Source: Candidatus Aenigmatarchaeota archaeon
Lineage (GTDB): Archaea > Aenigmatarchaeota > Aenigmatarchaeia > QMZP01
Assembly: GCA_026397335.1 (NCBI GenBank)
Contig: JAPLVB010000006.1
Coordinates: forward strand, 1 to 46,852
DNA: 46,852 nucleotides
Reading direction: 5' to 3'
Shown here: positions 482-36,137 of the stretch, piece after piece
How positions within the stretch are numbered: position 1 is the stretch's first letter
How the letters are laid out: each line of letters opens with the position of its first letter
Position numbers and translations under genes: made by a program
Notes under the pieces: model-generated
What the model was told of the DNA's origin: nothing
Database searches by the model: none
What the model saw: the letters and a program-made list of their open reading frames with translations, nothing else

Positions 482-3400
482 TTAAATCACTCTGAACCAC
501 TTGCCCGTGGTCTCCGAATTCCCGTTATAGGTCGTCTGGATGTCAACCATGTACTCCCCGGACCAAGTCTGCAGGGGGATTATGGTAAGTATCGCATAGC
601 CATCGCTGTTCGTGGCGCTCACGTTGGCTGCCAGGTTATAATGCTCTCCCTGGTTGAGCTTTATGAAGCCCATGCCCATGTTTCCTTTTATTGCAGACAC
701 GCTCACATTCGCTCCTGAAATCGGGCTCTGGCTGAAGTTATATGCCCTCACAAGAAGGGTTATGTTTCTTCCGCTGTTTATCTGCCACTCATCCTTTAGC
801 AGAAGCATGTCTGTATTGTTGTATTTCTCAATACTCCACTGGGGCTGCTGCTCCCAGGAGCCATTCGTCTGCTCCCCGAACCATATGTTCCCCTGCCATA
901 TGGAATTCGGAAGGTTTGACCGCTTTTCAACCATCCCTGTCTCACTGCTGTAGAAATCCTCCCTCAGAGACTGGTTGGTTGATTCAGACCACCACTCCTC
1001 TGTTATCTGAAGGTCATCATCCACTATTATCTGGGTAAGATTCTGCATGCCGTCGTCCATGTCATCATAAGCAACAGCATAGAAGATGTCTGTCTTGTCT
1101 CCGTCCATGTTAAGGTCAATGTTCAGTGAGCTCTCGTTGAATATCCCATAATAGCTGGTGGTGCTGCTCTTTACCCTGACATCCACGGCAGGCCGCGGAA
1201 GGTCCGTCATGCTGCTGAAGTCTGCTATGCTTACGCCGTCCCACGGACCCGGGCCCACCTTGGTAAGATAATAGTAATCCGTGAAGTTCTCGCCTGCCTT
1301 CACGCCAACGGCCTGGGAGAAGTTGCTGTTGTTCACGAGCCAGGCCTTTTTCGCGCATTCCTGCATGTTCCAGACCGCGCACATCGGATAATCGTCACTG
1401 GAGTTGGAGAGGATGGCGTTGTACGTTGTCCCGTTTACGTTTATAGACATTATCCTCCATCTCGCCGAGGCCGCCTGGTCGCCTCCCCCCCACGTGCTCA
1501 TGTGCAGCGGCTCTATGTCATCGCTGAACTGGGAATCGTTTATGCCTATCACGACCGTCCTGTTGTCCATATCCGCGTCCAGCAATCTCATGTAATATAT
1601 CCTCGCCTCGTTGTTGATGTTTATGGCATCGCTTACATTGGTCGCTGACATGACGTCGCTGAAGTTGCAGCTTCCCTGTTTTATCCAGACCTTGCTTGCA
1701 TTCGAGGCGGTCATGTAAAAATAATACTGCGGATTTCTGAGCTCGGAGCTCAGATGAAGGCGAGGACTGCCTTGTAGTACTTGCCGGCCTGCGTCCAATT
1801 GGCCGTGTAAAGTTCTTTTATCTCCCCTTCGTAAGTCTCCCCATCATACCTCGTTATGGGAAACTGCCTGAATCCTGATACGTAGGCGGCCTGGCCAGTG
1901 TAGCCGTCCACAAGGAACGTCCTTGGGGATGCCCGTGGCCATTTCCATTCCTCAAGCATCTCGGAATTCTGCCCCACTGTTGCGCGCACCTCGAAAACAT
2001 ATTCACCTGAACCCAGGCTGTACTGGCCTATGTTGACTATCCTCACTTCTCCCGCGCCTGTTATGGTTGCGTTCGGAACGGATCCTGGCAGGCTGAAAAT
2101 CCTGTTCACGCTGCTTCCTTTGACCCTGATATTATTTATGGACGCGTTCGCTGAAGCTGAGCTGCCGTTGGGGCTCCTTACAATAATCGGAACGGACACG
2201 TTACCGTCCATCCTGAAGTCTCCAAGGTCAGCCCAGTCGCCCATTTTGTCCGAATAGAACCTTACCCTGTCTGCCCTGGGGTCTATGCTCAGTAGCGTGA
2301 CCCTGTTTGAATTGTTCAGGCCGAACTTCCTGTTGTTCACGTTAGGATCGCTGACCGACAATGCCGTAGAGAATGCGTTGTTTCCTGTGGCGTTGAAAAA
2401 GAAGAATGTGTCGTAAATCCCGGCTGTCTGGCTGTCTGATATGGCTATGTAGACAGTCCCATTGGTCAGGCTGTCGTTATCCAGGTCAAGCCCTCTCTGG
2501 TTGCCTGTCTGTTTGTCCCATCCTCCGAGCCTGAACTCTTCCAGCCATCCTATCTTTATGACGCCGCTCTTTGACTTTGAGACGTTTGTGTATGCACCGC
2601 TGCCTGCAAGCACGTTAAGCCCTACTATGTTTATCTTGTTCTTGCTTATGGAATTCACTTTCCACTGACCCCCATAGGAGTCGTTGAATGTTCCGCTTAC
2701 ATTGTAAGGGCCTCCCAACTGCGTCATGTTCGAGGCGTTCGTTGAGACCCACAGATAGCTGGTATTATGGTAGAAATAAAGCGAGCGTGTCTGGTTGCCT
2801 GAAAGCCTGCCGTTGTACTGGTTCTCCGACACAAGGCTGTCCAGGCGGCCGTGATAGAAGGTCGTGTGACTCCCTGGAGATGCCATCATATATCCTACCT
2901 GTTCGCATCCTTCCATGCCGCAGTTTATCGACATCTCGCCGCATATCGTATTGTTGCTGAGATTCAGGCGGGGCTGCTGCCCAGCGGATACGACTGTCCA
3001 GTTCTTTCCGCCAAGAACGAAATAACCGCCAACCACATGAGTAACATTATTCACCATCAATACGCTGCTGTTGGCCCACACTGAAGCCTCAACGCCAGAT
3101 CCCGTGCACGATCCCTGGCGCCATTCTCCGCTGGATTGGACGCAGAACGTTCCTGTGCCATCTCCTGTGTCTGGCGGGCCCATCCACATGATGCCTATGC
3201 TGTTATCGCACCTGTCCCTGTCATTGCCTATATCAACGTCTTTGGATGCAGTGTCCTGGTTCCCTACCCAGGCTTCCTATATGCTCGGAATGCCCACGAT
3301 GAGGTTCTGCGTCTGTGTCATTTATCGAGTATTCGCCTGAATACCACCCGGAAGAAAGGGATGAAAGCGGGGTTGAGATTATGCATGCATTTTCTGTGCA

Positions 3401-6400
3401 GTTTGTTACTGATGTGTTGATCCTTATTGGAGTGTCTGTCTTGTCGTTATATATAGCCCTCAGCTTGGAGCCTGCCTGGCTCAGGTTGTGAGGTTGCGGG
3501 GGGTCGCCAAAATCCATTGCTGTGAATGTGACTGTAAGGTTCTCTGAAGAGGAGAAAGGAGATTTCCATTCATCCATTCCCCTGTAAGAAATCTCGATGT
3601 TGTACGTGGAGAGCCCAAAGAAGAAGCTCCCTATGTCAGAGCCCTTGCTGGTGGTCACCCTGGCATCAGCCTGGAATTCCCCGTCCTTGTCCAGGCCTGT
3701 TATGTTAACGACATATGGGTACCAAACCGCCTCCGGGGGCAGCCATTCAGCATACACCCTTGTGCTGTTGGAAACTGAGGTTGCCACAGAATCTGTAGAA
3801 ATTTCGGTAGGCGGCCATCCTGCCATCCATTTTATGCTCTGCAGGGTGGCTGAGGATATGGAAAGCATGTCTCCTGTGGAGGGATCCCTGGCAACCAGGG
3901 CGAACGCGGCTGAGCCTCCTTTTTCAAAAACCGGTCCCATATCCCGGGAGACGAAAAGGGCTGTCCCGTTGTCTGTTATCTTCATGGTTTCCACGTAGAA
4001 GTTCCTTACCTCAAATCCGCCCCAGCCGAAATACGTGTTGTCTGTGTCTGCGAGATCTGTCACTATAAGGTCCATCCCGTACCAACCACTCTGCATCTTC
4101 GGGCTGAGCGGTATTATCGTGATATTGGTGGTCGCGTTCGCAACCATGCCCACGGAAACATTGAAGTCCACCCCTTTGACCATCTCCTTCATGAGCTGGT
4201 CGTTCCTGAGGGAGCCCACGTCCACCACAAGGCCTTCGCAGTCGGTACAGGTGAGGGAGCTTGTTCCCTTGCCCATCTGGCTCATCATGCTTCCCTGGTC
4301 TATGTCCACCACGTTCACCGTGAGCGTCACGCTTTTATTTAGACCCGATATGCACTGGCCTCCTTCCTGGCTGCACTGCGGAGTTGCCCATATCATGTAC
4401 TTCTTGAGTTGGAAGAATGCGTTCCCTATTCCCTCCTCCATTGCTCCATTAACATAAGCCTTGAACTTGAACTTCATGGAAAAGAATCCCTCTGCATCAG
4501 GCGCATTGAAAACAAGGTTGCCGTTCTGGACCGACTCGTTCGCAGAGGCCCTGAAGCTGGCTGTGAAAACGTCCTGGAAATCCGGGAACTCCTTGTACAT
4601 CTCTATTATCTTTGCGCCTGTTATGTTGTTTGCAGGCAGGTCCTCCCTTGTGGAAAGGTCCTTTATCTTGAGCTTTATCTTCATGGTCGTGTTTGGCGCA
4701 AAGAACCAGTAGTCATCCCCTTTGGAGTCCACGGAAGCGCCTTCTGCATAAAACCTCTGTATGCCGAATGTTGATCCTGCCTTCTTTATCTCATTGTTGT
4801 AGTTTATCTGCGCCACTGCCTTATACGTGCCTGTCCTGTTCGGAGCTGCAAAAATTATCACGCACTGCCTCATGACCTCCTGGGGCGGCTGCTCTTCCAT
4901 GGACACTCCGGACATGGCTATTGCCCTTGACAGGTTCATTATAAGCGCTCCTGACACGCTCACTGACATCCCCCTGTCATCCCTCAGCTCCACCAGAGAG
5001 ACAAGCGTCCCGCACTCGTCCGTTCCTGTGGTGCTTCCATTGTCTATGTCTATAAGGCCCATTCCCTCAGGGCCCTTGGACATCATGCCTCCTGCGGATA
5101 TGTTTGAAAGGAAGACCATGAGGGTGACATTATCTGAAGGAGCGAAAGCATTCACCTCTCCGGCCCCGCTCTCTGCCTGGTCTATGAAATGCATGTTCAT
5201 TGCCATGAGCTGCAGGGAAACGGACTCCACTGAGAACCCTGTTATGAATTCCTGGCTGCTGTCCCCGTATCTTCCGACAACCTTGACCTGGTAGTTTCCA
5301 GTGACGCCGCCTATTGAAAAATCATAATAATAGACCCCTGTCTCGCCTTGCGTAAGGCTGTTTGTAGCTGCAGTGCCATTGGGGTAAGTCAGCCTGGCAG
5401 AGCCTGAGGTGAGGTTCACCGCGTTCCCGCTGGCGTCCCTGGAATTCGCATATATCCTTGCAACGGAGTTGGGAGAGAAGGAATATGCTGGGTTGCCGCT
5501 CAGGTCCGTGACCTTTCCTGACAGCTTGAATGACTCCACTGTGAAGTATTCTATTCCTTTGCTGTTGTTGAGGTCTATTGCATACGTGCCTGCAGTGGAA
5601 GGGGCTGTGAAATTGGATATGAAGAATCCCATGCTGTTGGTTGTGTTTGTGATGGTTGCCAGAACTCCTTTGGAGGAGTTCAGGAGCCTTGCCTGCACAT
5701 TCACTCCTGGGACAAAATTCCTGCTGGAATCCTTTGCCATGACTATGAAATTCACAGCAGAACTTGGGGAATATACAGAAGACCCTTTTGGCATCCCTAG
5801 GAATACCCTGTTTCCTGTATTGAACTCTATCTCCCCTATCATGTAGTCCCCGAATTTCTGCCCCTTATGCAGAACCTTTTCCGCGCTTGAGTTCTGCCCG
5901 GTGTCCTCTGTGTCATTATAAAGCTCAAACCTTATGTCATCATCCACGTACAGAGTGTCATAAGTCTGGTTGTAGTTCTGGTCTACAAGGACAAAATGGT
6001 AAAGCCTGTCCAGGGTCAGGTTCCCATAGTGCAGGGTCCCTGATATGGAAAGGTCCCTGAGCTCCGTGAAGTTCCCTCCCATGGAGTTATCTGTTGTTAT
6101 TACTGCGCTCGTATCCACGGGCTTTATGTCCTGCGCATTCATCAGGTGGGCCTCCAGGTAGGTTATCTGGGAAACAACCTCAAAATTCATGAATATGGTT
6201 GACTGCCCGTCCGTTACGCTTGCATTATAGGTTCCGACAGGCACCCCTGAAAGGGATTGGGAGAAAGAGAATATGTTGGAGCCGCTCGTGTTCAGGCTCA
6301 TATTTGTAACGATTATCGGGGTGGAATTTGAGGTTATGAGGGTCATGTTTATCTGGTTCATGTAATTGGTTATGTTTCCTATTACAGACAGGCTCTCGCT

Positions 6401-6517
6401 GGTTGTGTATACCAGCTTGTTTGCATGGGCATAGAAAGAATACGCGCCAGCAGGGGAGGACAGAGCTAATAGTGAAAAAACTAAACAGAGAACCAGAACT
6501 AAACTCTTACCACCCAT
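482..6517 (-). pseudogene. Giant secreted surface/S-layer-like glycoprotein (~2000 aa) interrupted by two frameshifts and one in-frame TAG (ORFs 3233-6517, 1750-3189, 482-1798)
   Basis: Only the first ORF has a signal peptide. All three ORFs share beta-rich, N-x-S/T-rich composition. Frames switch near 3320-3290 and near 1755, with an in-frame TAG at 3277-3279. Confidence 0.7.
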
Positions 6518-10548: not shown

Positions 10549-12384
10549 ATGGCTAAAGGCCAGACTGAGATTGTTGTGGTTTTGGGGATTGTGATTGTTG
10601 CTATTGTTGTTATTCTATATGCCGTTCCAAATATTCTTCCTTCTGATGTGCCTGCGGGAATAAAGCCAAAATATGATGCTGTGAAAGCCTCTTTTGAGAG
10701 CCTTGTCATGGATGGCGCGCAAAATACCATTAGAAAGCTCTCTCTTTATGGTGGATATCTTGACAACTCCTCTTTCCAGATGGGTTCTGTGACTTTTCTT
10801 GGGAAGGAAGTCCCGTACTGGCAGTACAATGGCCAAGTGAAATACCCGAACGTGAAGGATAATTTCATCCAGGGCCTGAGGGATTACCTGGCAAATAACA
10901 AAGATACTGTTGCTGAAAGCCTGAAAATGAGCGGAGTTGCTTTGGGAGATCCGCAGGTCTCTGCAAATTTCCTGAACAATAAAATTGTGATAACTGTAAA
11001 CATGCCTGCCACAATAGACGGGTATAAGATATCCAAGCCGTATGCTGTTGAAGTTCAGACAAGACTGAATGAGATAGATGAGTTCGCAAAGGGGCTTGCA
11101 TCCTATGATGCGAGCAATAGGCCGTTCGAATACTATACACTCTCCTCAATGATGATAAGCCCTATAGAACAGGATGTGCACACAGTTCCGATGTTCATAT
11201 TCCTTACAGAATGTGGAGATTATGTCTTCAAGAGCTGGTGGGATTTGAAGCCTGCGATGGAGAATGTGATAAAGACCACGCTCGCCCAAACCTATATGCC
11301 GGGGAAAGCCCCCCTGAACACCATGATGAGTTCTGGTTCTCCCAAATACAGCCTTGTTCCTGTAAACGGGAAAAGATACGAGAGTCTCGATGTCGCCTTC
11401 CATCTGCCTGATGATTTCAGTCTCACGCAGGCGGACTTCCAGTTCTCTCCTGACCCCATAATGGTTACGTCCAAAATCATTCCCATGGTGGGTCAGTGTC
11501 AATCAGACCCAGTTTACGTGAACTATTATGTTTCCTATCCTGCGATAGTAAGGGTGAAGGACCCCCTTACCCAGAACGTCTTCCAGTTCGCCCTTCATGT
11601 TTTCATAAAGGACAACAAGCCAGGAGTCTGGACCGAATCAGGGTATGAAAGTGATGTCCAGAAGCAGATATGCTCCAACCCGCAGTGTGCGGCTGACATC
11701 TCCCTGAAAGACAGCACAGGTAAACCGGTTGACTTCGCTTCCATAACTTTCATGGGATGTGATCTGGGAAGGACAAATTCACAAGGAGTTTTAAGAGGGC
11801 CTGCCCCATGCGGCCTGGGCCCGCTCCAGATATACAAGCAGGGTTATGATGCTTACAGCAGGATGGAATCCTCAGACCGCCTGGCCGGCCTGACAATCTC
11901 GCTTGTGAAGACCCCTGCAATAAATGCACATTTCTATGAGGTGATAATCCAGAACCTTTCCCTTAACGGCAAATATGACATCTCGCAGAACGCGGTGAAC
12001 GTCATAGAAAGCGGCCATATTGTTTACATGAATTTCTATGACATGGCAAGCATCAAGTCTTACCAGATGGGCTACAATATGAGGGGCGGGCAGATTAATG
12101 GAATGCCTGCCGGGTATTATGTTATCGGAGGGACTTTGCTCTCCAAGGGCAATGAGCTTGGCGCATTCATTATCAATTATACATTATCCGAGGGTCTTGA
12201 CGGGAAGGACCTGTACATATATCTTCCAAACGAGCTTGGCTATCAAGGAATAACAGACACAGCCCAAAAGGCCGGTGCAACAGTCACCCTGACTAATGTG
12301 TTAATAAAATGCGGTCTCGGTCCGGTCTCTCTCTCGGAAATAAAGAACTTCAAAGGGTGTTCGGTGGGTTACAATGAAGTTTAA
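10549..12384 (+). CDS. Large class III signal peptide (pilin-like) protein, 611 aa
   Basis: MAKGQ-TEIVVVLGIVIVAIVVILY, followed by a long extracellular region with paired Cys. Confidence 0.75.
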   Translation: MAKGQTEIVVVLGIVIVAIVVILYAVPNILPSDVPAGIKPKYDAVKASFESLVMDGAQNTIRKLSLYGGYLDNSSFQMGSVTFLGKEVPYWQYNGQVKYPNVKDNFIQGLRDYLANNKDTVAESLKMSGVALGDPQVSANFLNNKIVITVNMPATIDGYKISKPYAVEVQTRLNEIDEFAKGLASYDASNRPFEYYTLSSMMISPIEQDVHTVPMFIFLTECGDYVFKSWWDLKPAMENVIKTTLAQTYMPGKAPLNTMMSSGSPKYSLVPVNGKRYESLDVAFHLPDDFSLTQADFQFSPDPIMVTSKIIPMVGQCQSDPVYVNYYVSYPAIVRVKDPLTQNVFQFALHVFIKDNKPGVWTESGYESDVQKQICSNPQCAADISLKDSTGKPVDFASITFMGCDLGRTNSQGVLRGPAPCGLGPLQIYKQGYDAYSRMESSDRLAGLTISLVKTPAINAHFYEVIIQNLSLNGKYDISQNAVNVIESGHIVYMNFYDMASIKSYQMGYNMRGGQINGMPAGYYVIGGTLLSKGNELGAFIINYTLSEGLDGKDLYIYLPNELGYQGITDTAQKAGATVTLTNVLIKCGLGPVSLSEIKNFKGCSVGYNEV

Positions 12385-15300
12385 ACTAATCGCGATAGAG
12401 GTGTTTGCAATATTCGTCTCATATCTAGTTTTCTCTCTAACTGTGACTTCTGCGACTGATGTGAGCATAATGTTCAACGGCCAGATTCAAGAAACGGCAA
12501 AATACGAGCAGGAAAAGCTTGTTAACATGCTCATAACAATGCACCACGAATCAAATGACATCACATGGACAAACGTGAAGCTTGTTGTTAACCTGAACAG
12601 CGCGAGCCTTGCAAACAGCATAAAGAAGATATACCTTTACAAGTGCAGGTCACAGACTCCCACGGAATGTGTGCGCTCCGCCCCCCAAGTATTTGACAAT
12701 TATGTGGACACAGAGCTTCTCTGGAAGGACATCTCGGAGAAGACCACCGCAGCCCAATACCCCCAGATAGCAAACCTCCTTTTCATTGTGAAGCTGGAGG
12801 ATACTAACAAGAAGGAGAACTGGGTGGGATTCTTCACCCAGACCAAACGAACGAGTTACAACACATTTGACACCACCCAGCTCTCTATCCAAGGGATTGA
12901 GCTTCATGCAAAATCCCTTTACCTTGTGGAGCCCATAAAGGCCTACATAGAGAACAAGATGATGATACCGTTCAAATGGGCAACCAAAGTCGTTTTCTCC
13001 GGTGCGAACCCGCTCTATGGGATAGGCGCCTCCGGCCAGGAAGCAGACTCCCACAATTTCCAGACAGCTGTTGTTCCTGTGAACGAGATAACAAGCATAA
13101 ACAAGGATTTCTATTTTGTTTTTCCAAAGATAAGTTCCGGTATTGCAAACCCGATTGTCCTGAACCTAAACCCCTCATTCAGCTGCGGAAACGGGATTTG
13201 CGAATCAGACATAGGAGAGACTGCAGGCTCTTGCTGTTATGACTGCGGCTGCGCTACAGTCCAGTACTGTGATACAGCCTCAAACATAAACCTGAGCACA
13301 TGTAAAGCCGATAATATGGCTCTTTCTGTTATCTCAGCAAACACAGAGCCAATCTCAGACTGTGCCAGGGGATTCAGTGCAAACATATCAGTCCGTGTGA
13401 GCAACCCTCCTGTAAGCCTTAGCTCACAGATATCAGGGACTGTGAAGCTTAACAATACAGTTTATAATGTGATGTGCTCAGGCAGCTCAGGCTCATATGA
13501 ATGCACAATCCCGCTTACCTCAAGCATAAAATGCGGTGAAGGCTCATATGTAATCGGCCCCGGGATTCTAAATCTTACAGCCAGCTACAAGGACGGCCCA
13601 AATGCAGCTACCAAATCCCTCAGCACCTCCTTCTCCGGAGTGGCCGTGAACTATGACTGCAAATGCCAGGAAGGCAGTTATTGCGACTCGATAAAGAAGA
13701 CCTGCCAGTCAGAAGGTGCAATCACCCTTGGCATAACAAGGATTACCTCCTATCTTGACAATTATAACCCAGGAGACAGGATATACCTTAGCGCAAAGAT
13801 ATTCAATCCTCCCGCAGGCCTTGTTCTTGTTGACAAGAGCGCAATCATGAACCTCACGAATGGCCAGGTCTCTCCAGGCACGCCAGACTGCTCTCCACCC
13901 AGTCCGCAGTTCGAGTACAACTGCTCAATACCTTTCCAGATTTCTGGCTACACAAATGAAAAGGCATATACATTCAGCCCGAACACGCTTTCTTTCACAA
14001 TAACCTACAATGACGGCCCGCTTGCAAAAACCAAAACCATTTCCGCTCCTTTCGGCCCCGTGAGCATACCCTCCCGCCTGTGCGGGGACAACCAGTGCAA
14101 CATGGATGAGTCACAGGAGAACTGCTGCCTGGACTGCGGCTGCCCGAGCGCGAACCAGTTCTGTGACAAGGTGGCTGGCTGCATAGACCAGGATTCTGTC
14201 TCTACCTCTGTGAGCTCCATCAACCCTGTGAACTTCACGGACTGTAGGCAGGAGCACACAGTCTCCATTGGCGTCACCGTGAATAACGCTCCCACGGACA
14301 TGAGCCTTGACTACTCAGCTTACTTGCAGAATGGCCTGGTAAAGGGCTGGAACCTGCACTGCGAGAAGTCCTCTGTCAATCTGTTCAACTGCACTCTTGT
14401 TATCCCCCCGCTCGAGAGCGAGGGCTGCTCCCTCCCCTACAAGACCATAACCGGCAACTCCATAAACATGACAATCTCCTTCCCCAACGGGAAGAGCAAG
14501 CAGATAACCAAGCACCTTAACGCTCCCTTCCAGGACATTTTCGTGATTCCTGTATATCACTGCGGCGATGGCACATGCGAATCCTCGCTTGGCGAAAGCC
14601 CATCAAACTGCTGCTATGACTGCTCGTGCAAGGACTCCCCCGCCTTTGGGGAAAACTTCTACTGCGATTTTGACCCGCAAACCTTCCTAGGCGGATGCCT
14701 CCCGAAGGCTAACATCTTGCTTGTAATAGACTCTCCCACAGCTCCTGTCTCCCTTTCCAGCTGCGAGCTCACGAACAGCGTGAACATAAAGGCCCACATA
14801 ACCAACCAGCCCAAGAACGCAAGGCCTGAATACTTTTACGCCTCCCTGAACGGCTCCAATGCGGACATGATACACTGCGACCAGCAGCAGGTCACGCAGG
14901 GCTCCAATTATACCTTCAACTGCACCTTAATGATTCCCAAAATCTACCAGTGCTCCCAAGGCCAGACCTACACGTTTGACCAAAACTCCCTTTCCGTCCT
15001 GCTAAGCTATGAGAACGGCAAGCAAAAAACTGAGACCCAGACTCTCTCAGCCTCCCTTCCAACAATCACAGTCAGGCAGGGCATCAGAACCCTTTATGAT
15101 ATCACGCAGGAAGGGATAAGGAAGATGCAATCCAAGCTTAAGGACACCATGCAGACTGCACGGGACATGCTTGATGCATTCAAGAGCTGCATGGAGACCG
15201 TGAAGACCATAGGATACATGACTCTTATAGCTGCCATTGCTGGCGGAATATGGGCCGGCACAAGCAGCCCCACAACAACCACTACCTCTACGCCGCAAGC

Positions 15301-16555
15301 CATCACGTCAACCACACAAAGCAAAATTGCTACAGGCGTGAGCACGGCTGTCCAGATCGGCCAGCTTGGGACCAGCCTCATGTCTGCATACGGGAAGATG
15401 TGCGAATACCTGAACACCATGTACCAGATGGGCCTGCAGGTCCAGCAGCTGGAGATGAAGATGATACAGATGGACATGTGCATGGAGAGCAACCAGCACA
15501 TGCTGGACATAGGCCAGTGCAATGGAAGGGAGCAGTCCTGCTTCCAGTCCATGGTTTCCTGCGTCAACTTCAATGACATCCAGTCCTGGGCAAGCCAGCT
15601 CAGCACAACAATACAGAGCGGCAACAACGCCCTGGCAGGCATGAATACTGCCCTCACAAATGCGGGAACCATAGCCGGGACGCTTGGTGGAAATGGGTAT
15701 GGAATAATGCAGATAGGATGCGGCGGCAAGGAGATACCTAACGGCGGAAAATGCTGTGGATCCAATGGCCCATCAGGTTCGGTCACATCTGCGACAGGCG
15801 TAGGTTATACTTCGTGCTCATATATTGATCTTGAAATAAGAACTGTTCAGAACACGCAATATTGTTCAGGAAATTACATGATTCTTGTAGATGGCAGCAG
15901 AGTGACTACAAATGTAATGAAAGGCGACAATATCCAGTTCTTTAATGACAAGACGCATAGCTTCGCGCTTTATTGTGATTCGAACAAGAACGGCATCATA
16001 GATTCAAATGAGTTGGCCATAGGCAGCGGCCTCCAGGCAACCCTTCTTAGGCCAAATGTTTACAATGCCGCAAGCCAGCCCTGTGAGTGTACCGGAAGTG
16101 CTGGTAATGCTTCTACATCTGCTGGCTGTTGTTATATTAGCACAAGCAATTGCCAGGAGGCGGTGTATTTGGATGCATGCAATAATCTTAAAGGTACGCT
16201 GAAACCGGATGTTTCCTGCGCCGCAGTTCAAGGATGTCCCCAATATAATGGAACTGCCAGCGTGACGGCAACCTTGACTGCAGATAAAACTCTGATTAAG
16301 CCGGGTGATATAGTGACTTTCAATTGTAATGGTATTGCAAGCGGAGGTGCAACCATCAACAATTATGTGCTGGATTATGGCGACGGTGGGGACTATTCCT
16401 CTACAACACCGATAATAGGTTCCTACAGGCAATATGACTGCTCAAACAAGAGTTCGTATGCAACTACTTGCACAGTAAAAGACACGACAAAAACACCAGT
16501 TTTAACTGATACTAAAACAAATACAATTCAATGTGATTATTCTGGTTTGAGTTAA
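12374..16555 (+). CDS. Giant secreted Cys-repeat protein with an internal hydrophobic helical hairpin and a C-terminal PKD-like domain
   Basis: Signal peptide; CG(N/D)xxC...CCxDCxC modules at 13184, 14081 and 14561 (partial at 13658); hydrophobic segment IGYMTLIAAIAGGIWAG; C-terminal VTFNC...YVLDYGDG PKD-like motif. Confidence 0.8.
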   Translation: MKFKLIAIEVFAIFVSYLVFSLTVTSATDVSIMFNGQIQETAKYEQEKLVNMLITMHHESNDITWTNVKLVVNLNSASLANSIKKIYLYKCRSQTPTECVRSAPQVFDNYVDTELLWKDISEKTTAAQYPQIANLLFIVKLEDTNKKENWVGFFTQTKRTSYNTFDTTQLSIQGIELHAKSLYLVEPIKAYIENKMMIPFKWATKVVFSGANPLYGIGASGQEADSHNFQTAVVPVNEITSINKDFYFVFPKISSGIANPIVLNLNPSFSCGNGICESDIGETAGSCCYDCGCATVQYCDTASNINLSTCKADNMALSVISANTEPISDCARGFSANISVRVSNPPVSLSSQISGTVKLNNTVYNVMCSGSSGSYECTIPLTSSIKCGEGSYVIGPGILNLTASYKDGPNAATKSLSTSFSGVAVNYDCKCQEGSYCDSIKKTCQSEGAITLGITRITSYLDNYNPGDRIYLSAKIFNPPAGLVLVDKSAIMNLTNGQVSPGTPDCSPPSPQFEYNCSIPFQISGYTNEKAYTFSPNTLSFTITYNDGPLAKTKTISAPFGPVSIPSRLCGDNQCNMDESQENCCLDCGCPSANQFCDKVAGCIDQDSVSTSVSSINPVNFTDCRQEHTVSIGVTVNNAPTDMSLDYSAYLQNGLVKGWNLHCEKSSVNLFNCTLVIPPLESEGCSLPYKTITGNSINMTISFPNGKSKQITKHLNAPFQDIFVIPVYHCGDGTCESSLGESPSNCCYDCSCKDSPAFGENFYCDFDPQTFLGGCLPKANILLVIDSPTAPVSLSSCELTNSVNIKAHITNQPKNARPEYFYASLNGSNADMIHCDQQQVTQGSNYTFNCTLMIPKIYQCSQGQTYTFDQNSLSVLLSYENGKQKTETQTLSASLPTITVRQGIRTLYDITQEGIRKMQSKLKDTMQTARDMLDAFKSCMETVKTIGYMTLIAAIAGGIWAGTSSPTTTTTSTPQAITSTTQSKIATGVSTAVQIGQLGTSLMSAYGKMCEYLNTMYQMGLQVQQLEMKMIQMDMCMESNQHMLDIGQCNGREQSCFQSMVSCVNFNDIQSWASQLSTTIQSGNNALAGMNTALTNAGTIAGTLGGNGYGIMQIGCGGKEIPNGGKCCGSNGPSGSVTSATGVGYTSCSYIDLEIRTVQNTQYCSGNYMILVDGSRVTTNVMKGDNIQFFNDKTHSFALYCDSNKNGIIDSNELAIGSGLQATLLRPNVYNAASQPCECTGSAGNASTSAGCCYISTSNCQEAVYLDACNNLKGTLKPDVSCAAVQGCPQYNGTASVTATLTADKTLIKPGDIVTFNCNGIASGGATINNYVLDYGDGGDYSSTTPIIGSYRQYDCSNKSSYATTCTVKDTTKTPVLTDTKTNTIQCDYSGLS

Positions 16556-17431: not shown

Positions 17432-18859
17432 ATGAAATTATTTTTCTTGGGATTTGTTTTGAGCCTGGTTCTCCTAACAGGCACAGCCCATGCCCTTCGC
17501 CTAACAGACGGCCTTTTCTTCACAGTCGCTCCCAACTCCACCGGGGAGGTGTATTTCATCCTCCCTGATGATGTGGGCGCGGGACCTGGAAAGGCTGATT
17601 ATTTCATAACCACTATGACAAACTGGCCTGTGGACCTGACCGAGCAGACTGTGACTACAGAGGAGAACAACACAGCAATAATCCCGATAAAATTCTACTC
17701 ATCAGGCAGGAAAGAAGGAGACTGCTCCAATTACACTGTTACCATTTCTGCCCCGGGCCTAAACCTCTCCAGAACATGGAAAGGAGGGGTTTGCCTCTCC
17801 AAGTATGCTGATGTTGACATCTCCAAATCAGGCGGGGACGCGAAAAGCGTCCTTAACAATAATGTGGATCTCTTTAGCGCGGGATTCAGGACTTACACAA
17901 AGAGTGCCAAGCCAGGCGAGACCGTTCAGGTAGAGGTCCTCATACAATCGCAGGCAAGCCTTATGATAGACGTCACCCTCCAGTCCCAGGCCTTTCTGGA
18001 CAAAAGGAGCTTTGTGATCCAGACAAGCCAGAACTCTGAATACAAAGGCCTGATTGTTAATGCGAGTGCCGCTTCCTCAGGGAATTATGACATAATCCTG
18101 ATAGCAAAAGCCAGAAACTGCTCCCTGACCTCGTGCACAAAGCAGAGCTCCATGAAGTTGGTGGTTTCTGGAACAGAGTCACAGGAAGGATTCGCGGTTT
18201 CCGTCTTCCCGGAGAACCTTGCCATAAAGAAGCTGGAGCCGGTAACATACTCATTCACGCTTCAGAACAACTATAAGGATGAGGTTAATTTTATCGTGGA
18301 TGTGGAGAAGCCGCTGGATCTTGACAGCTCCTTCGTGCTCGGGAATTTCACTGTTCCGGGCCTCTCGGAGAGGACTGAGAATTTCACTGTCACCCCGCAT
18401 AACTCCACAGGATTCTATGAGATAAAGGTCCGCGCCAGCATGAATGATGTCGAGAAGATTATTTCTGCATACCTCTCAACGAATGAGATGGTTTCTGATG
18501 TTTACAGGAATGCGGATGATGTGCTGGCTGGCGCGAATTCGTCTGTCCGGGCGGTTGTGGACAGTAACGTGAGGAACTGGTACAGCTCCTACTCAAAAAA
18601 CGAGTACGGCTCAAACATTACAGGATATGCAAACCTGCAGGAGACGCTGGATGCTGCAAGGAAGCAGAACGCCTCATCTGTCCAGCCCAAGCCGCCTGCC
18701 AACAATACATATGTCCCTGCTGATGGCACAGAATCTCAGCCCAATCCTTTGCAGTGGATTGTTATACCCATAGCTCTGGGTGGGGCGGTTCTTGTGGTCC
18801 TTATGCTTTTCAGAAGGAAGAAAGATAAAGGTGAAGAATTCCTGGAACTATCCAGATAA
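17432..18859 (+). CDS. Surface protein with signal peptide, beta-rich (Ig-like) domains and a C-terminal TM anchor
   Basis: N-terminal signal ending AHA; C-terminal WIVIPIALGGAVLVVLMLF-RRKK. Confidence 0.8.
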   Translation: MKLFFLGFVLSLVLLTGTAHALRLTDGLFFTVAPNSTGEVYFILPDDVGAGPGKADYFITTMTNWPVDLTEQTVTTEENNTAIIPIKFYSSGRKEGDCSNYTVTISAPGLNLSRTWKGGVCLSKYADVDISKSGGDAKSVLNNNVDLFSAGFRTYTKSAKPGETVQVEVLIQSQASLMIDVTLQSQAFLDKRSFVIQTSQNSEYKGLIVNASAASSGNYDIILIAKARNCSLTSCTKQSSMKLVVSGTESQEGFAVSVFPENLAIKKLEPVTYSFTLQNNYKDEVNFIVDVEKPLDLDSSFVLGNFTVPGLSERTENFTVTPHNSTGFYEIKVRASMNDVEKIISAYLSTNEMVSDVYRNADDVLAGANSSVRAVVDSNVRNWYSSYSKNEYGSNITGYANLQETLDAARKQNASSVQPKPPANNTYVPADGTESQPNPLQWIVIPIALGGAVLVVLMLFRRKKDKGEEFLELSR

Positions 18860-18880
18860 CAATTGAATAGTGGGTGTTTC

Positions 18881-20521
18881 TTAGTAGAAATCCTCATCTG
18901 AGAATTCGTCCTCTTCTTTCTCGTCACCGCCCTCTTCAAACTCTTCCTCTCCACCGCCGCCTTTCTTCTTTATGAATTTCTTGAACACAATAAATCCCAC
19001 AACAGCAGCGGCTGCCACACCCCCTCCTATCAGGGCTATGGTTGTTATGTCAAATCCGCCAGTTGGTGACGGTTCGGTGCCTCCTGTGCATATCCCGTCT
19101 GAGCAGGTTTCTCCTGCTCCTGTGCAGTCAGAACTTGTGCAGCATTGCTGGCAGCTCCCGGAGCAGCATACCCCCGAACTGCAGTCTGAGTTTGTCGTGC
19201 ATCCTATTGGAGTAGATTTCTCGCATATGTTGCTGTAAGTGCACGTCTCATCTGTATTGCAGTCAGAACTGCTGCAGCACTCCCCGCCTGTTATGCATGA
19301 GCCGCTGCAGCATATTCCTCCTGTGCAGCTGGCCATATCGCTCTTGCCTTCGCACTCTCCCGGAATAACTGCTGATGTGCATTTGAAATCAGAAGAACAT
19401 GTTTTTCCTGAAGGGCAGTCAGAACTGGAGCAGCATTCTGCCCCTCTTGTCCTGCATATTCCTCCGCAGCATATCCCGCCCAGGCAAAGCGCCATGTCAC
19501 TCTTGCCCTCGCAGGATGCTGGATTTATTGCGCCAATCACGCTGATTCTCAATTCAACTGGTATCTGCTTGATTTCTGTTGGGCCTGACAAGAGAGTCGC
19601 GAACGTGGAGATGTTTGTGCTTGACTGTATATTGTTGAGAGTGACCGTCATGTACGTGCTCTCATTCGGCTCAAGGGAGGTTTTCTTGGGGGTTATGGTC
19701 AGATAACTGGAAATCTGCTGCGGAACAGAAATGCTCAGGGCTGTGAGATTATCTGTTCCCAAATTCGTGATTTTGAAAGTCTCAATCTTGAACTCCTGGT
19801 TTGGATTTATCACAGGGCTGTAGGCTATGCTGTCTGCCTTTACATCAGGAGATCCTGTTCCCCCGCCACCGCCACCAACAACCACCCTTGCAACCCCTCC
19901 GCCGAAATCAGTGGGGCTGGTTGCAGAGAAAGCAATGTAATACTCCCCATTTGAAAGGGTTATGTTGGTGCTGTAGCCGTAAATCATGTCGTTTCTTATC
20001 GTTGTTCCGCTCTTCACCATATTGAGCCCGGCAGTATCATAAACCTTGTAGGAAATAGTACCTGTTATAGAACCTCCTGCCCAGGCTTTTATGTAGACAA
20101 TGTTTCCTGATGTGGTTATTTGGCTGCTTATCGGGATTCCTCCCACGCTCACATTAACAGATGTGGTTTGATTCTGATTGTTCTGGTTTACGGCAATAAC
20201 ATCAGTTTCATAGGGAACCCCGTAAGACGGTCCCGGGAACATGTTGGGGCCACATGTATTCGGGATGTCTGTGTTAGAAAAATAGCACACATACTTGTTC
20301 CCTACGAAATTAATGCTCCAATACCCGTATTGTACACCATAGACAATCCATTTCACGCTCACGGATTCCCCGGAGGATGCATGCGGGTCCGCGATCATGA
20401 TGAAGCTCGAGTTGACAGAAATCTTGTCCGGTATGAAAGTCACGTCAGGCGGCTGTATTGCGCTTGCACTCGGAACAGAAAGAAAAATCACAGCCAGCGC
20501 TGCAATCCAGAATGGCTTCAT
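18881..20521 (-). CDS. Type I membrane surface protein with Cys-rich tandem repeats and an acidic cytoplasmic tail
   Basis: Signal peptide, repeats CEGKSDMAxCxGGICC...CCSSSDC, TM helix, KKKGGGGEEEFEE tail. Confidence 0.8.
   Translation of the reverse strand: MKPFWIAALAVIFLSVPSASAIQPPDVTFIPDKISVNSSFIMIADPHASSGESVSVKWIVYGVQYGYWSINFVGNKYVCYFSNTDIPNTCGPNMFPGPSYGVPYETDVIAVNQNNQNQTTSVNVSVGGIPISSQITTSGNIVYIKAWAGGSITGTISYKVYDTAGLNMVKSGTTIRNDMIYGYSTNITLSNGEYYIAFSATSPTDFGGGVARVVVGGGGGGTGSPDVKADSIAYSPVINPNQEFKIETFKITNLGTDNLTALSISVPQQISSYLTITPKKTSLEPNESTYMTVTLNNIQSSTNISTFATLLSGPTEIKQIPVELRISVIGAINPASCEGKSDMALCLGGICCGGICRTRGAECCSSSDCPSGKTCSSDFKCTSAVIPGECEGKSDMASCTGGICCSGSCITGGECCSSSDCNTDETCTYSNICEKSTPIGCTTNSDCSSGVCCSGSCQQCCTSSDCTGAGETCSDGICTGGTEPSPTGGFDITTIALIGGGVAAAAVVGFIVFKKFIKKKGGGGEEEFEEGGDEKEEDEFSDEDFY
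19085..19515 (-). repeat. Three tandem Cys-rich protein repeats (two closely similar)
   Basis: CEGKSDMALCLGGICCGGIC..ECCSSSDC, CEGKSDMASCTGGICCSGSC..ECCSSSDC and CTTNSDCSSGVCCSGSC..CCTSSDC. Confidence 0.8.
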
Positions 20522-27431: not shown

Positions 27432-29096
27432 TTAATAATCTTCCATTCCGCCCATTCCAGGACCGCCGCCATGAGGCATCGAAGGCATCTTGCCGCCTCC
27501 TGAGCTTGTGACTGAAATCACGTCATCTATCCTAAGTATCATCTCAGCCGCCTCTGCTGCAGATTTTATGGCCTGTGTCTTGATTTTCAGGGGCTCTATC
27601 ACCCCGAGCTTGACCATGTCCTGAACCTCTCCTGAAAACACGTCCAGACCGAATGTTACGTTGCCTTTCTTGTCATGCTGGGACCTCAGGTTCGCGAGCT
27701 TGTCTATCGGGTCAAGGCCTGCGTTCTCTGCGAGACTTCTTGGTATCACTTCCATTGCCTCTGCAAACGCGTTTATAGCGAGCTGCTCCCGACCCTTGAA
27801 CGATTCTGCATATTTCCTGAGCTCTTTCGCGACCTCTATCTCAGAGGCCCCTCCTCCTGCCACTATCTTCCCCAGTTCCAGGGCTGCTGCTATCCCCTTT
27901 ACCGCGTCCTCCATGGCCCTCTGGACCTCATCAACCACGTGCTCTGTGCCTCCCCTTATAAGGATTGTGACAGCTTTTGGCTCGTGACACTCTTCCACAA
28001 AAATCATCTGGTCGCCTGCTATCTTCCTCTCCTCCACACGGCCTGCAAATCCCAAATCATTCTTTGAGAGGTCGTTCAGGTTGTTTACGATGCCCGCGCC
28101 AGTGGCCCTTGCAAGGGCCTCCATGTCTGATTTCTTCACGCGCCTTGCTGCCATTATGCCTGCCTTTGCCATCAAGTGCTGTGCAGCGTCATCTATGCCC
28201 TTCTGGCAGAAAATCACGTTCGCTCCGGACTTGACAACCTTGTCCACCATGTCCCTGAGCATGCGCTCTTCCTGCTCTATGAAGGCCTGCATCTTCTCGG
28301 GAGAGTTTATGGTTATTTTCGTGTCTCCTTCCAGCTCCTTTACCTCCAGGGCAGAATCTATAAGCGCTATTTTTGCCTTCTCTATTTTCTTGGGCATGGC
28401 TGAATGGACAATCTCCTTGTCTATCAGGACCCCGTTTATCAGCTGGCTGTCATTCATGGATCCGCCTTCCTTCTTTTCCAGCTTTATGTTGTCCACATCT
28501 ATGCTCACGACCGTTCCCTTGACATCGGCAATTTTCTTGATAGCCTTTACTGCAATCTCTGCCAGCTCTTTTGAGGCCTTTTCAGCAGACTTCCCTGTTA
28601 TGGCCGTGTTTGCAATCTGCTCCAGAGAAACCTCATCATTTATGTCAACCTTCCTGGAAATTGCGTTAAGGACCTCAAGCGCTTTTGTTTTGGCCATCCT
28701 GTAGCCCTTTGTTATCACAGTAGGGTGTATCTCCTGGTCAAGGAGATCCTCAGCCTTCTTGAGCAGCTCCCCTGCCAAGACAGCTGCTGTGGTTGTGCCG
28801 TCTCCAACTGACTTGTCCTGTGTTTTAGCGACTTCTACCATCATTTTCGCGGCCGGGTGCTCTATATGCATCTCCTCCAGGATTGTGGCCCCATCATTAG
28901 TTATCACCACGTCCCCCAGGGTGTCCACCAGCATCTTGTCCATACCCTTGGGACCAAGAGTGGTCCTTACCGCATCTGCCACAGCCTTTGCCGCAGCTAT
29001 ATTGGAGCGCTGGGCATCCTTGCCCCTGCTCCTCAGAGCTCCCTCTGGTAAAATCAAAATAGGCTGTCCGCCCAACTGTGCAAAACCGTTTGCCAT
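27432..29096 (-). CDS. ths: Thermosome subunit (group II chaperonin)
   Basis: [10 protein letters not shown] and GDGTTT motifs, GGM tail; GGAGAGGTGA RBS. Confidence 0.97.
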
Positions 29097-29220
29097 TTTA
29101 TCACCTCTCCTTGAATGTTAAATATAAAGCTCGGGATGCTTCTGGCTGAAAAGAGTATATATAGTGTAGCTAGTTAATTTATAAATGCTTTACTCACGAT
29201 AGATTTGAGGGATTTCAGGA

Positions 29221-29228
29221 TTTATAAC
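29221..29228 (+). promoter_or_regulatory. TATA box upstream of the hairpin array / tRNA fragment
   Basis: TTTATAAC about 30 nt before the structured region, divergent from the thermosome TATA (29178-29185). Confidence 0.5.
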
Positions 29229-29251
29229 CCTTTTTACCCAAATAACTACAA

Positions 29252-29570
29252 CTGCCGTTCTCACTATAAGGGACGTTAGTTTGAAGTCCGAATGGACTTC
29301 TTTCCAACTGAGAGTGAAGTAGCAGGGTCTGCTTCCTTCCAAATGTGAGATTGACGGCTTGAATAGATTGATTCAAGCCGTCTTTCGGACGTGAGATTGA
29401 AAGTGTCCGCGGGCACTTTCCACTGCTGGAAAATCATTTCCGGCCGTGTGCGCAGGTCTTATAAGGCCGCCAAGCGCCGCGAACGAAAGACGGAAGGCGC
29501 AAGCGCCTTCAATCGAAAATCGCGGAGGCAGCGTAAAGTTGGACGTGGCGAAGCCGCGTCTTTCCAAGCG
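29252..29570 (+). repeat. Array of at least six GAAG/GAC palindromic hairpins; candidate structured ncRNA
   Basis: Hairpins at 29283-300, 29316-339, 29353-382, 29399-420, 29493-510 and 29542-560; GTGAGATTGA twice and TCTTTCCAA twice. Confidence 0.7.
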
Positions 29571-29573
29571 CAA

Positions 29574-29610
29574 AAGCCGAAGGTCCAGGGTTCGAATCCC
29601 TGCGAGCCCA
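29574..29610 (+). tRNA. tRNA 3' half only (Val/Ile-type acceptor end; anticodon not determinable)
   Basis: AA-GCCGA-AGGTC-CAGGG-TTCGAAT-CCCTG-CGAGCCC-A followed by a T-run. No GGGCTCG 5' strand or D arm was found upstream. Confidence 0.75.
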
Positions 29611-29635
29611 TTTTTATTTTTTGATGTCTTTTGCG

Positions 29636-30067
29636 CTAGCCGGCTGCCAGCTTTTTCTTTACAGGGAACAGAACTATCTTGGCTATCTGCTCCATCAGTT
29701 TTGGCTCTGCGGCCACTATATCCACTGCCGAGACTATTCCAACAAGCTGGTTTCTTGAGATCACGGGAAGCCTTTTAACTCTCCTCTCTGTCATGGAGTC
29801 TGCCGCATCCTCAATCTCTGTTTCAGGCCCTACGGCCACCACTTCCGTTGTCATGAACTCTTCCACCTTCACCTTGGAAGGAAGCTTGTTCTTGGATACA
29901 ACTTCCCTCATTATATCGCTTTCTGTTATTATGCCTGCAAGCAGCTTTTTCTCCGTCACAATGAGGCAGCCAATCCTGAACTGTGACATCAGTTTTGCCG
30001 CCTCCTGAATGCTGGATTTGGGAGAAACAGTCTTCACATCAGCCGTCATAATATCTTTTACACGCAT
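29636..30067 (-). CDS. CBS-pair domain protein
   Basis: VKDIMT, GIITESDI, RLPVI and GIVSAVDI CBS motifs. Confidence 0.92.
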   Translation of the reverse strand: MRVKDIMTADVKTVSPKSSIQEAAKLMSQFRIGCLIVTEKKLLAGIITESDIMREVVSKNKLPSKVKVEEFMTTEVVAVGPETEIEDAADSMTERRVKRLPVISRNQLVGIVSAVDIVAAEPKLMEQIAKIVLFPVKKKLAAG

Positions 30068-34740: not shown

Positions 34741-34941
34741 AGCATTCGCCCTGCAACACCTAACTATCAAATCCGTTAAGGCGGAGAAGTTGGAACTTCA
34801 ATTGAAGTTGCTTTGCAACTTCCTTCTTTAGTTGCCAACTTCGAACTAACTTTCGCCTTGTTTAGAATATGGCAGAAAGACATTTATTCGGATGCAAGGC
34901 TTTTTTCCAAGCTTTATATCAAGCCAGACCGAATAATAATC

Positions 34942-36096
34942 ATGAAATCCACGCTGCTGGACGGCAATGCTGCGGCTGCATGGGGCGGACGGCTCGCGAG
35001 AGCCCAGGTGGTTCCAAACTTTCCTGTAACTCCCCAGACAGAGCTGATAGAGAAGTTTGCTGAATGGAAGGCCAAGGGTGAATGGAAGGGTGAGTTCCTT
35101 CCGATGGAATCTGAGCATAGTGTCCTGTCTGCTGCAATAGCTGCTTCTGTCACAGGGGCGAGAGTTTTCAGCGGCAGCTCCTCCCAGGGCCTCATGCTCA
35201 TGCACGAGATGGTTTATGTGGCCTCCGGGATGAGGGTTCCTGTTGTGATGATTAATGTCTCGCGCGCTTTATCAGCCCCCATCACACTCTGGCCGGATCA
35301 TAATGACATACTTGACCAAAGGGATTCAGGCTGGCTTATCTTCTTCTGCGAGAACAACCAGGAGGTTCTGGACACTGTAATACAGGCATACAAGATTTGC
35401 GAGGATGAGCGCGTTCTTTTGCCTGCGTTTGTGAACATGGAAGGGTTCGTGCTTTCCTATACAAGGGAGCCTACGGAGATACCCGAACAGAAAGCTGTCG
35501 ACCGCTTCCTTCCCAAGTACAAACCAAAAGTCTTTCTTGACCCGAAGAAGCCAATGGCTATAGGGATAGGAGTGATGAAGGAGTATCCTTACTTCCGGAG
35601 CCAGGTTTATCTGGCGCAGAAAAATGCAATGAAGGTTATACAGGAAGTCCACAGGGACTGGAAAAAGAAGTTCGGAAGGGAATACGGGTTTGTGGAAAAG
35701 TTCATGATGGAAGGCGCCCAGATCGCTCTTGTGAGTATGGGAGCGAACAGCTCAATCGCGAAAGCTGCTGTGAAAAGCCTGCGCTCAAAAGGGATTCTTA
35801 TCGGTCTCGTGAGAATAAGGGTGTACAGGCCTTTTCCCAAAGAGGAGATCAGGAAATCCCTCCAGGGGGTGGAGGCTGTTGGTGTTATAGACCAGAACCT
35901 TTCACCCGGATATGGGGGGATTGTATATCCTGAGATAAGGGATGTCCTTTACGACAGGAAAATCCCTGTGAGCGACTTCATAGTGGGGCTGGGAGGCAAG
36001 CAGATATCACAGCAGGAGTTCGAGCAGTTCGGGATGGAAGTGCTTAAATCCGTAAAAACCAAAAAAGACGTGATTCTTTGGCAGGCTGTGGACTGA
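34942..36096 (+). CDS. porA: Pyruvate/2-oxoacid:ferredoxin oxidoreductase alpha subunit
   Basis: LDGNAAAA, FPVTPQTE, ESEHS, SSQGLMLMHE and RPFP motifs; ATG at 34942. Confidence 0.92.
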   Translation: MKSTLLDGNAAAAWGGRLARAQVVPNFPVTPQTELIEKFAEWKAKGEWKGEFLPMESEHSVLSAAIAASVTGARVFSGSSSQGLMLMHEMVYVASGMRVPVVMINVSRALSAPITLWPDHNDILDQRDSGWLIFFCENNQEVLDTVIQAYKICEDERVLLPAFVNMEGFVLSYTREPTEIPEQKAVDRFLPKYKPKVFLDPKKPMAIGIGVMKEYPYFRSQVYLAQKNAMKVIQEVHRDWKKKFGREYGFVEKFMMEGAQIALVSMGANSSIAKAAVKSLRSKGILIGLVRIRVYRPFPKEEIRKSLQGVEAVGVIDQNLSPGYGGIVYPEIRDVLYDRKIPVSDFIVGLGGKQISQQEFEQFGMEVLKSVKTKKDVILWQAVD

Positions 36097-36137
36097 CGGT
36101 TTGAATAGATAGAAGCGTGGCCATGGCCTTATGGCGC

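Follow-up and report, generated by a model that had tools for sequence, protein, structure and literature searches.

The window, as we call the whole stretch of 46,852 nucleotides analyzed here, is contig C46 of the genome assembly of a Candidatus Aenigmatarchaeota archaeon (1.05 Mb, 59 contigs, 92.5% complete). Between a divergent thermosome gene (27432-29096, minus strand) and a convergent CBS-domain gene (29636-30067, minus strand) lies a hairpin-rich region (Table 1) that very probably comprises the leader, the two introns and the last two exons of a tRNA-Ile(UAU) gene, with exon 1 present in the organism and lost from the assembly at 29420|29421. What the window lacks of the tRNA is the 5' strand of the acceptor stem, the D arm and positions 26-29; of intron 1, it lacks the first two letters. 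After intron removal, TAT falls in the 7-nt loop of a cloverleaf, as seen with exons 2 and 3 in the window and with the full exons in 12 relatives and the metagenomic record L065. CCA is not encoded after exon 3. This is likely a kind of gene already known, a multi-intron archaeal tRNA-Ile(UAU), which appears truncated through a likely assembly error.

A first-pass annotation, made from the letters of the window, had described the region as a promoter-led hairpin array running into an orphan tRNA 3' half. Much of what it saw is present, namely the TATA box, six hairpins of one family, two linkers that each occur twice, and a tRNA 3' part running to 29610 and followed by a T-run. The supposed orphan half is another matter, as the anticodon exon and the 3' end of the 29/30 intron lie inside the array and had been missed. 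Half of the array consists of two tRNA introns around that exon, which had likewise gone unseen. ARAGORN, and Rfam at its cut-off, returned no match in the window. Two further candidates were rejected: mascRNA/menRNA (RF01684), which scored 27.2 bits against a gathering cut-off of 42.5 with the T arm as the matching part, and a permuted tRNA arrangement, no 5' half being visible by eye after exon 3.

Table 1. Features of the tRNA-Ile(UAU) locus in window coordinates.
Feature	Position	Strand	Remarks
TATA box of the tRNA gene (putative promoter)	29221..29227	+	TTTATAA; L065, G001 and G004 have the same box before their intact gene
Pre-tRNA 5' leader: four repeat-family hairpins and one local hairpin	29250..29420	+	Likely removed by RNase P; start site estimated from the distance to the TATA box
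Junction where about 45 nt are lacking (end of the leader, the 30-nt exon 1 and the first 2 nt of intron 1)	29420..29421	+	Likely assembly error
Intron 1 (position 29/30) minus its first 2 nt; 3' splice-site strand GTGT-GCGC-AG	29421..29455	+	
Exon 2 (tRNA positions 30-38), anticodon TAT at 29460-29462	29456..29464	+	Same exon in 12 intact relatives
Intron 2 (position 38/39), 111 nt, with two repeat-family elements inside	29465..29575	+	
Predicted nested inner intron, 37 nt: repeat hairpin set into the intron 2 3' splice site, with a near-copy of one hexamer on each side (GCGTAA / GCGCAA)	29537..29573	+	
Exon 3 (positions 39-73): anticodon 3' strand, variable loop, T arm, acceptor 3' strand, discriminator A73	29576..29610	+	Identical in L065 and L064
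T-run, likely terminator	29611..29622	+	Same run in L065

Intact genes in relatives

A BLAST search against 61 genomes recovered syntenic loci in G001 and G025, each with an intact, intron-containing tRNA gene with a TAT anticodon. When 47 genomes of the family were searched with a 12-nt motif around the anticodon exon, 19 loci appeared in 17 of them, namely 12 intact genes with exon 1, six chance matches and the window itself. Two more relatives, L064 and L065, came from a scan of metagenomes; the same kind of scan with a stretch of intron 1 gave 0 matches, and a 10-nt pattern run over six genomes gave background only. In the 12 family genomes, L064 and L065, the tRNA-Ile(UAU) gene is in one piece. 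L065 has the gene order of the window, from the thermosome gene through the promoter, a single leader hairpin and the intact tRNA-Ile(UAU) to the CBS gene, with flanks that are 81.7% and 87% identical. Exons 2 and 3 of the window are unchanged as compared to L065.

The ends of the 38/39 intron pair 4/4 in the central helix in all 12 intact genes and in the record L045, and in the relatives this intron is 17-60 nt long, beginning with GGCC as in the window and ending in GTAR-AA. Six relatives, two of them near-identical, carry the 29/30 intron as a second intron. Its central helix forms 4/4 pairs in all six despite changes on both sides (GTGT/GCAT, GCGT/GCGC, GCAA/TTGC, GCGC/GCGC). Of this bulge-helix-bulge (BHB) motif, a 4-bp central helix between two bulges plus an intron helix, the 3' strand lies in the window and the 5' strand in the loose end of a contig from another sequencing run (X1, below). 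The genes of other relatives contain D-loop or T-loop introns.

Two minor features of the tRNA itself were noted. The top pair of the anticodon stem (positions 27/43; window 29580) is C-A in L065, L064, G001 and G004 and U-A in other relatives, and a C-A pair is likely in this genome too. L026, L027 and L045 have a different acceptor stem, starting GGACCCG or GGACGGG, with the same anticodon intron.

Exon 1 and the reading of AUA codons

Contigs of five out of nine sequencing runs (X1-X5, of which X3 is from another study) were compared with the junction region. In X1, which may not be the source sample, a 345-nt contig with a low depth of 4.7 matched 29421-29750 with 0 differences over 330 nt. 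Its remaining 15 letters, TGGTAGAGCGCCGAG, precede 29421 and cover the last part of the D arm, positions 26-29 and the first letters of intron 1; all 15 match L065 at the same place and with the same intron start. The last 13 nt of exon 1 are accordingly joined to 29421 in this contig, while the first 17 nt are seen in relatives only. From the other side, a 151-nt contig of X3 matched 29274-29420 with one difference, its fit ending at the junction from the left with 4 letters over. Among the records listed, none bridges 29420|29421 as the window does, and we saw none that spans the whole gap in this strain. In X2, X4 and X5, no contig close to the window covers the junction. X1 also had no fitting contig for 29210-29273 and most of 29128-29209, a hole that is no proof either way.

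The size and nature of the gap can be estimated from the surroundings. Judged by eye, the last hairpin stands 11-14 nt before the tRNA in seven comparable leaders, which implies that about 45 nt are missing here if no further hairpin lay in the gap. The two sides of the junction share no letters on the side that can be checked and the assembly contains no N, so neither a simple repeat collapse nor a visible scaffold gap explains the join. Within the genome assembly (92.5% complete), we found no free 5' half, no partner with a complementary trailer, as the first-pass annotation had suggested seeking, and no second tRNA-Ile(UAU) gene. A relaxed ARAGORN run over the genome gave noise only.

True loss of this gene would probably be badly tolerated. 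In long ORFs, ATA accounts for 10039/240970 codons as compared to 4579 for ATT and 3742 for ATC, and it exceeds the other two together. TiaS, searched as PF08489, was found in 0/47 genomes of the family and 0/251 genomes of the phylum, with 4/4 archaeal controls positive. Given that AUA is the main isoleucine codon and TiaS was not found, we infer that real loss of the gene would leave no reader of AUA, which makes an assembly error likelier. Two tRNA genes with a CAU anticodon were seen in the genome, by a scan that can miss intron-split anticodons, and by their features they look like the elongator and initiator Met tRNAs, with no tRNA-Ile2(CAU) beside them.

Beyond this genome, a strict tRNA-Ile(UAU) 5' pattern occurred in 64/251 genomes of the phylum, spread over many families (reversed control 0), although it covers only genes without upstream introns and is blind to genes like the one in the window. 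Reading of AUA by a UAU anticodon thus looks like the rule in the phylum and not a rarity of a single species. Use of tRNA-Ile(UAU) without TiaS has been published for other archaea (passages of PMC3239211, PMC6000648, PMC3575796 and PMC8450103), and the cases named there include ARMAN-2, ARMAN-4 and ARMAN-5 (PMC3239211) as well as Nanoarchaeum equitans and Korarchaeum cryptofilum (PMC6000648, PMC8450103). The present genome resembles these in its TAT-anticodon gene with an anticodon-loop intron and in that TiaS was not found; like ARMAN-2, it also encodes an epsilon2-type endonuclease. It differs in its lineage, Ca. Aenigmatarchaeota, in the second intron at 29/30, and in introns and a leader inflated by a dispersed repeat. 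The geometry of its anticodon-loop intron fits 38/39, whereas the ARMAN-2 intron is given as 37/38 (PMC3239211). Among literature titles, a coverage that leaves out most subscription papers, we found none on AUA decoding in Aenigmatarchaeota.

Loss of the 5' part through a deletion artifact had been the last option listed in the first-pass annotation, and it is the one that the data support. The annotation had also named relatives or reads with an intact tRNA at this place as what would refute its reading, and these were found in the form of the relatives' intact genes and the X1 contig. A real deletion in the assembled cells would make the locus a pseudogene or a minority allele, with the working tRNA-Ile(UAU) unassembled or on other chromosome copies. 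Such a deletion would agree with the blunt join in an assembly without N, hairpin-rich DNA may delete, and a genome that is 92% complete could hold another, unassembled copy; the one mismatch in the terminal 38/39 splice site, as compared to full pairing in 13/13 relatives, could likewise be decay. We nevertheless consider it improbable, given that a contig identical over 330 nt, fast-changing introns included, keeps exon 1, that exons 2 and 3 are unchanged as compared to L065, that AUA is the main isoleucine codon with TiaS not found, and that a search of the genome revealed no second copy.

The remaining readings fare worse. The 3' halves of tRNA genes are common att sites, and a remnant of an integrated element had been among the options suggested, yet a scan of 39 proteins of the window, out of 124 ORFs, revealed no integrase, the flanking genes are the same as in L065, no other match in the same genome covers the 3' half among the matches listed, and the locus still has its anticodon exon and its two introns. 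Of all readings, this is the one to which we give the least credence. Very improbable as well is a split tRNA-Ile(UAU) whose break falls within the 29/30 intron and whose 5' half is transcribed elsewhere and joined in trans. Passages of PMC4090602 describe 29/30 introns and split tRNAs, with breaks at 29/30 in Caldivirga, and in this assembly, which is incomplete, a promoter-led 3' part with a 29/30 splice strand does look like the split halves of Nanoarchaeum equitans and Caldivirga maquilingensis described there. In contrast to those, the 5' exon here lies in cis, both in the identical X1 contig and in the relatives with the gene in one piece, and neither a separate 5' gene nor a trailer partner was found in the genome. 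The exon 1 letters joined to 29421 in X1 largely refute the trans-spliced half. The assembly-error reading teaches caution, as it means that an ordinary tRNA gene with several introns came to look convincingly, but falsely, like a "split tRNA half" or a "new ncRNA" after a small deletion in an assembly rich in hairpins.

Palindromic repeats in the leader and introns

The six hairpins share a GAAG/GACG..CTTC/CGTC foot and lie at 29283-29300, 29316-29335, 29353-29382, 29399-29420, 29493-29510 and 29542-29560. The linkers, GTGAGATTGA (29345 and 29391) and TCTTTCCAA (29299 and 29559), occur 7 and 56 times in the genome, where they flank a dispersed repeat. By a loose scan there are 48 hairpins in the window, where five Markov controls gave 8-23; the count for the genome, which includes background, is 910. 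Each of five tested elements has look-alikes on other contigs, and the same hairpins fill the introns of many other tRNA genes of the genome, including introns in D and T loops. The 16-mer at 29353 has seven further sites on five other contigs with one or two mismatches, in most cases with the complementary arm close by. Its recurrence at 36095 with one mismatch, which had been reported earlier, is present as a single arm: 36095-36110, at the end of an oxidoreductase ORF (34813-36096), is a remnant of the GACGGC hairpin type with no complementary arm.

The leader differs among relatives in the length, number and sequence of its hairpins. From the TATA box to the tRNA, the distance is 79 nt in L065, 135 in G004, 191 in G001 and at least 200 in the window, which indicates an elastic leader rather than a conserved one. 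Kept in L065, G001 and G004 are the TATA box and the sequence that follows it, ATAACTACAA. The "array" is thus a variable leader plus two introns (29/30 and 38/39) filled by a dispersed palindromic repeat. The hairpins would be passengers of this genome-wide repeat, tolerated in those parts of the transcript that are cut away.

Could the hairpin leader, once RNase P has freed it from the pre-tRNA, instead serve as a structured RNA with a function of its own or give rise to small RNAs? The whole region folds strongly (-154.6 kcal/mol, z -6.6, 0/100 shuffles as good) and stands downstream of a conserved promoter. The first-pass annotation had considered both a new structured ncRNA with a tRNA-like end and an array processed into small RNAs, and had noted a possible closing helix of CTGCC and GGCAG. 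The pair probability of that helix does not exceed 0.02, and of 5000 stretches of 330 nt drawn at random from the genome, 36% contain GGCAG. Leader structure and length differ among the window, L065, G001 and G004, every tested hairpin has look-alikes elsewhere in the genome, and no Rfam family matched the region at cut-off. A functional leader consequently seems highly unlikely to us, and we retain the reading of the hairpins as copies of a dispersed repeat. Like the REP/BIME-like palindromic repeats of bacteria, the hairpins are short and dispersed, have a fixed foot and gather in non-coding DNA; the present repeat differs in being archaeal and in also entering tRNA introns and an RNase P RNA gene.

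Between one and three introns interrupt most tRNA genes of this genome (on C6, C8, C29, C39, C41, C42, C47 and C48), in many cases within the T loop, and the longest genes reach about 280 nt (C6:261, C48:23490). A second type of repeat, a poly-T/poly-A hairpin exemplified by CTTTTTCAAGAAAAAG, recurs in several of them, and many of these intron-bearing genes escape standard tools. The gene for RNase P RNA (C42:23692-24179, minus strand; L066) is likewise enlarged, with 488 nt as compared to the 288 positions of the model, and contains inserted hairpins of the repeat family, some of them nested.

Splicing machinery and a predicted intron within an intron

Components that could mature such a transcript are encoded in the genome. 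The RNase P RNA was matched with an E-value of 8.4e-19 at 67 bits, below the Rfam cut-off of 84; Pop5 and RtcB are present, and a search for an RNase P of the HARP type gave no match. An epsilon2-like EndA of 409 aa with three units (C6:1028-2257; L042:859-2088) matches 4FZ2, which we take to be the ARMAN-2 epsilon2 enzyme, over its full length with an E-value of 3.7e-93. According to passages of PMC3239211, the ARMAN-2 enzyme cleaves strict as well as relaxed motifs, and excerpts of PMC5829648 treat endonuclease types in DPANN archaea and undetected disrupted tRNAs. There is also a second EndA, a single-unit protein of 225 aa on C41 (L041:1474-2151, minus strand). This small genome has two tRNA splicing endonucleases, both of which adjoin tRNA clusters.

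Maturation may then proceed from one transcript of about 400 nt starting near 29250. RNase P would remove the hairpin-filled leader, and the epsilon2-type endonuclease and RtcB would remove the 29/30 and 38/39 introns, probably after a 37-nt inner intron had left. The resulting 74-nt tRNA plus CCA would read AUA.

The inner intron is suggested by the 3' splice site of intron 2. The terminal 38/39 splice strand reads GCAA in the window as compared to GTAR in 13 relatives, a single mismatch, and the central helix for removal in one step (exon positions 33-36 with the intron end) has 3/4 pairs here and 4/4 in 13/13 relatives and L065. Forcing the terminal pairing costs 11.8 kcal/mol. A perfect GTAA strand lies 37 nt upstream of the terminal one. 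Enumeration of two-step routes gave exactly one in the window, in which removal of 29537-29573, with both flanking helices at 3/3 pairs, restores a perfect outer site. The inner 4-bp helix, GCGU/GCGC, has a pair probability of 0.88-0.98, and elements similar to the 37-nt insert occur elsewhere in the genome.

Other features of the model fit less well. The bulges of the inner motif measure 4 nt rather than 3 nt. Its closing helix has a probability below 0.01 in the ensemble owing to alternative pairing and takes 3.2 kcal/mol to enforce, and the outer central helix after inner removal reaches 0.001 in the isolated fragment. In L064 (500-610), a related tRNA-Ile(UAU) has a GAAG..CTTC hairpin inserted where the window has its own, in the 3' splice site of the 38/39 intron, and does not show the hexamer duplication; enumeration for L064 gave no one-step or two-step route with perfect helices to a mature tRNA. 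Splicing of the outer intron first was rejected for the window, as it leaves a second site with 3/4 pairs and no intron helix. On balance, a 37-nt nested intron with the inner cut made first is a plausible prediction.

How such an intron may have arisen is a more tentative matter. A mobile palindromic repeat could have inserted itself into the bulge at the 3' splice site of an essential tRNA's intron, with duplication of a hexamer that is self-complementary over its first four letters (GCGU/GCGC); the insertion would thereby have made its own splice motif. This would amount to an intron within an intron, the de novo birth of a BHB intron with obligate inner-first splicing, and we rate it as a possibility somewhat short of even. 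Multiple and nested archaeal BHB introns are known (Sugahara 2007 and Tocchini-Valentini 2009, as cited in passages of PMC3978253), and ordered removal is also described in excerpts of PMC8450103. The present case is like them in its non-canonical positions and, if the prediction holds, in that one intron must leave before the next motif can form. It differs in that the predicted inner element lies wholly inside the outer intron, has 4-nt bulges and is a recognizable copy of a genome-wide palindromic repeat, with a near-copy of a self-complementary hexamer on either side; this arrangement hints at its origin. Mobile elements have been proposed as a source of introns, and passages of PMC4033280 name the way in which repeats create BHB introns as an open question. 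Literature titles, most subscription papers lying outside their coverage, included none on palindromic repeats that form archaeal tRNA introns. If the nested intron is real, it offers a short, synthesizable substrate for testing the creation of BHB introns by repeats.

Elsewhere in the window (1750-6517, 10549-16555 and 17432-20521) lie large ORFs of 611, 1393, 475, 546 and 479 aa without a Pfam match, along with a 1094-aa ORF whose one recognized domain is MG2. The 546-aa ORF contains short direct repeats at 19124-19447.
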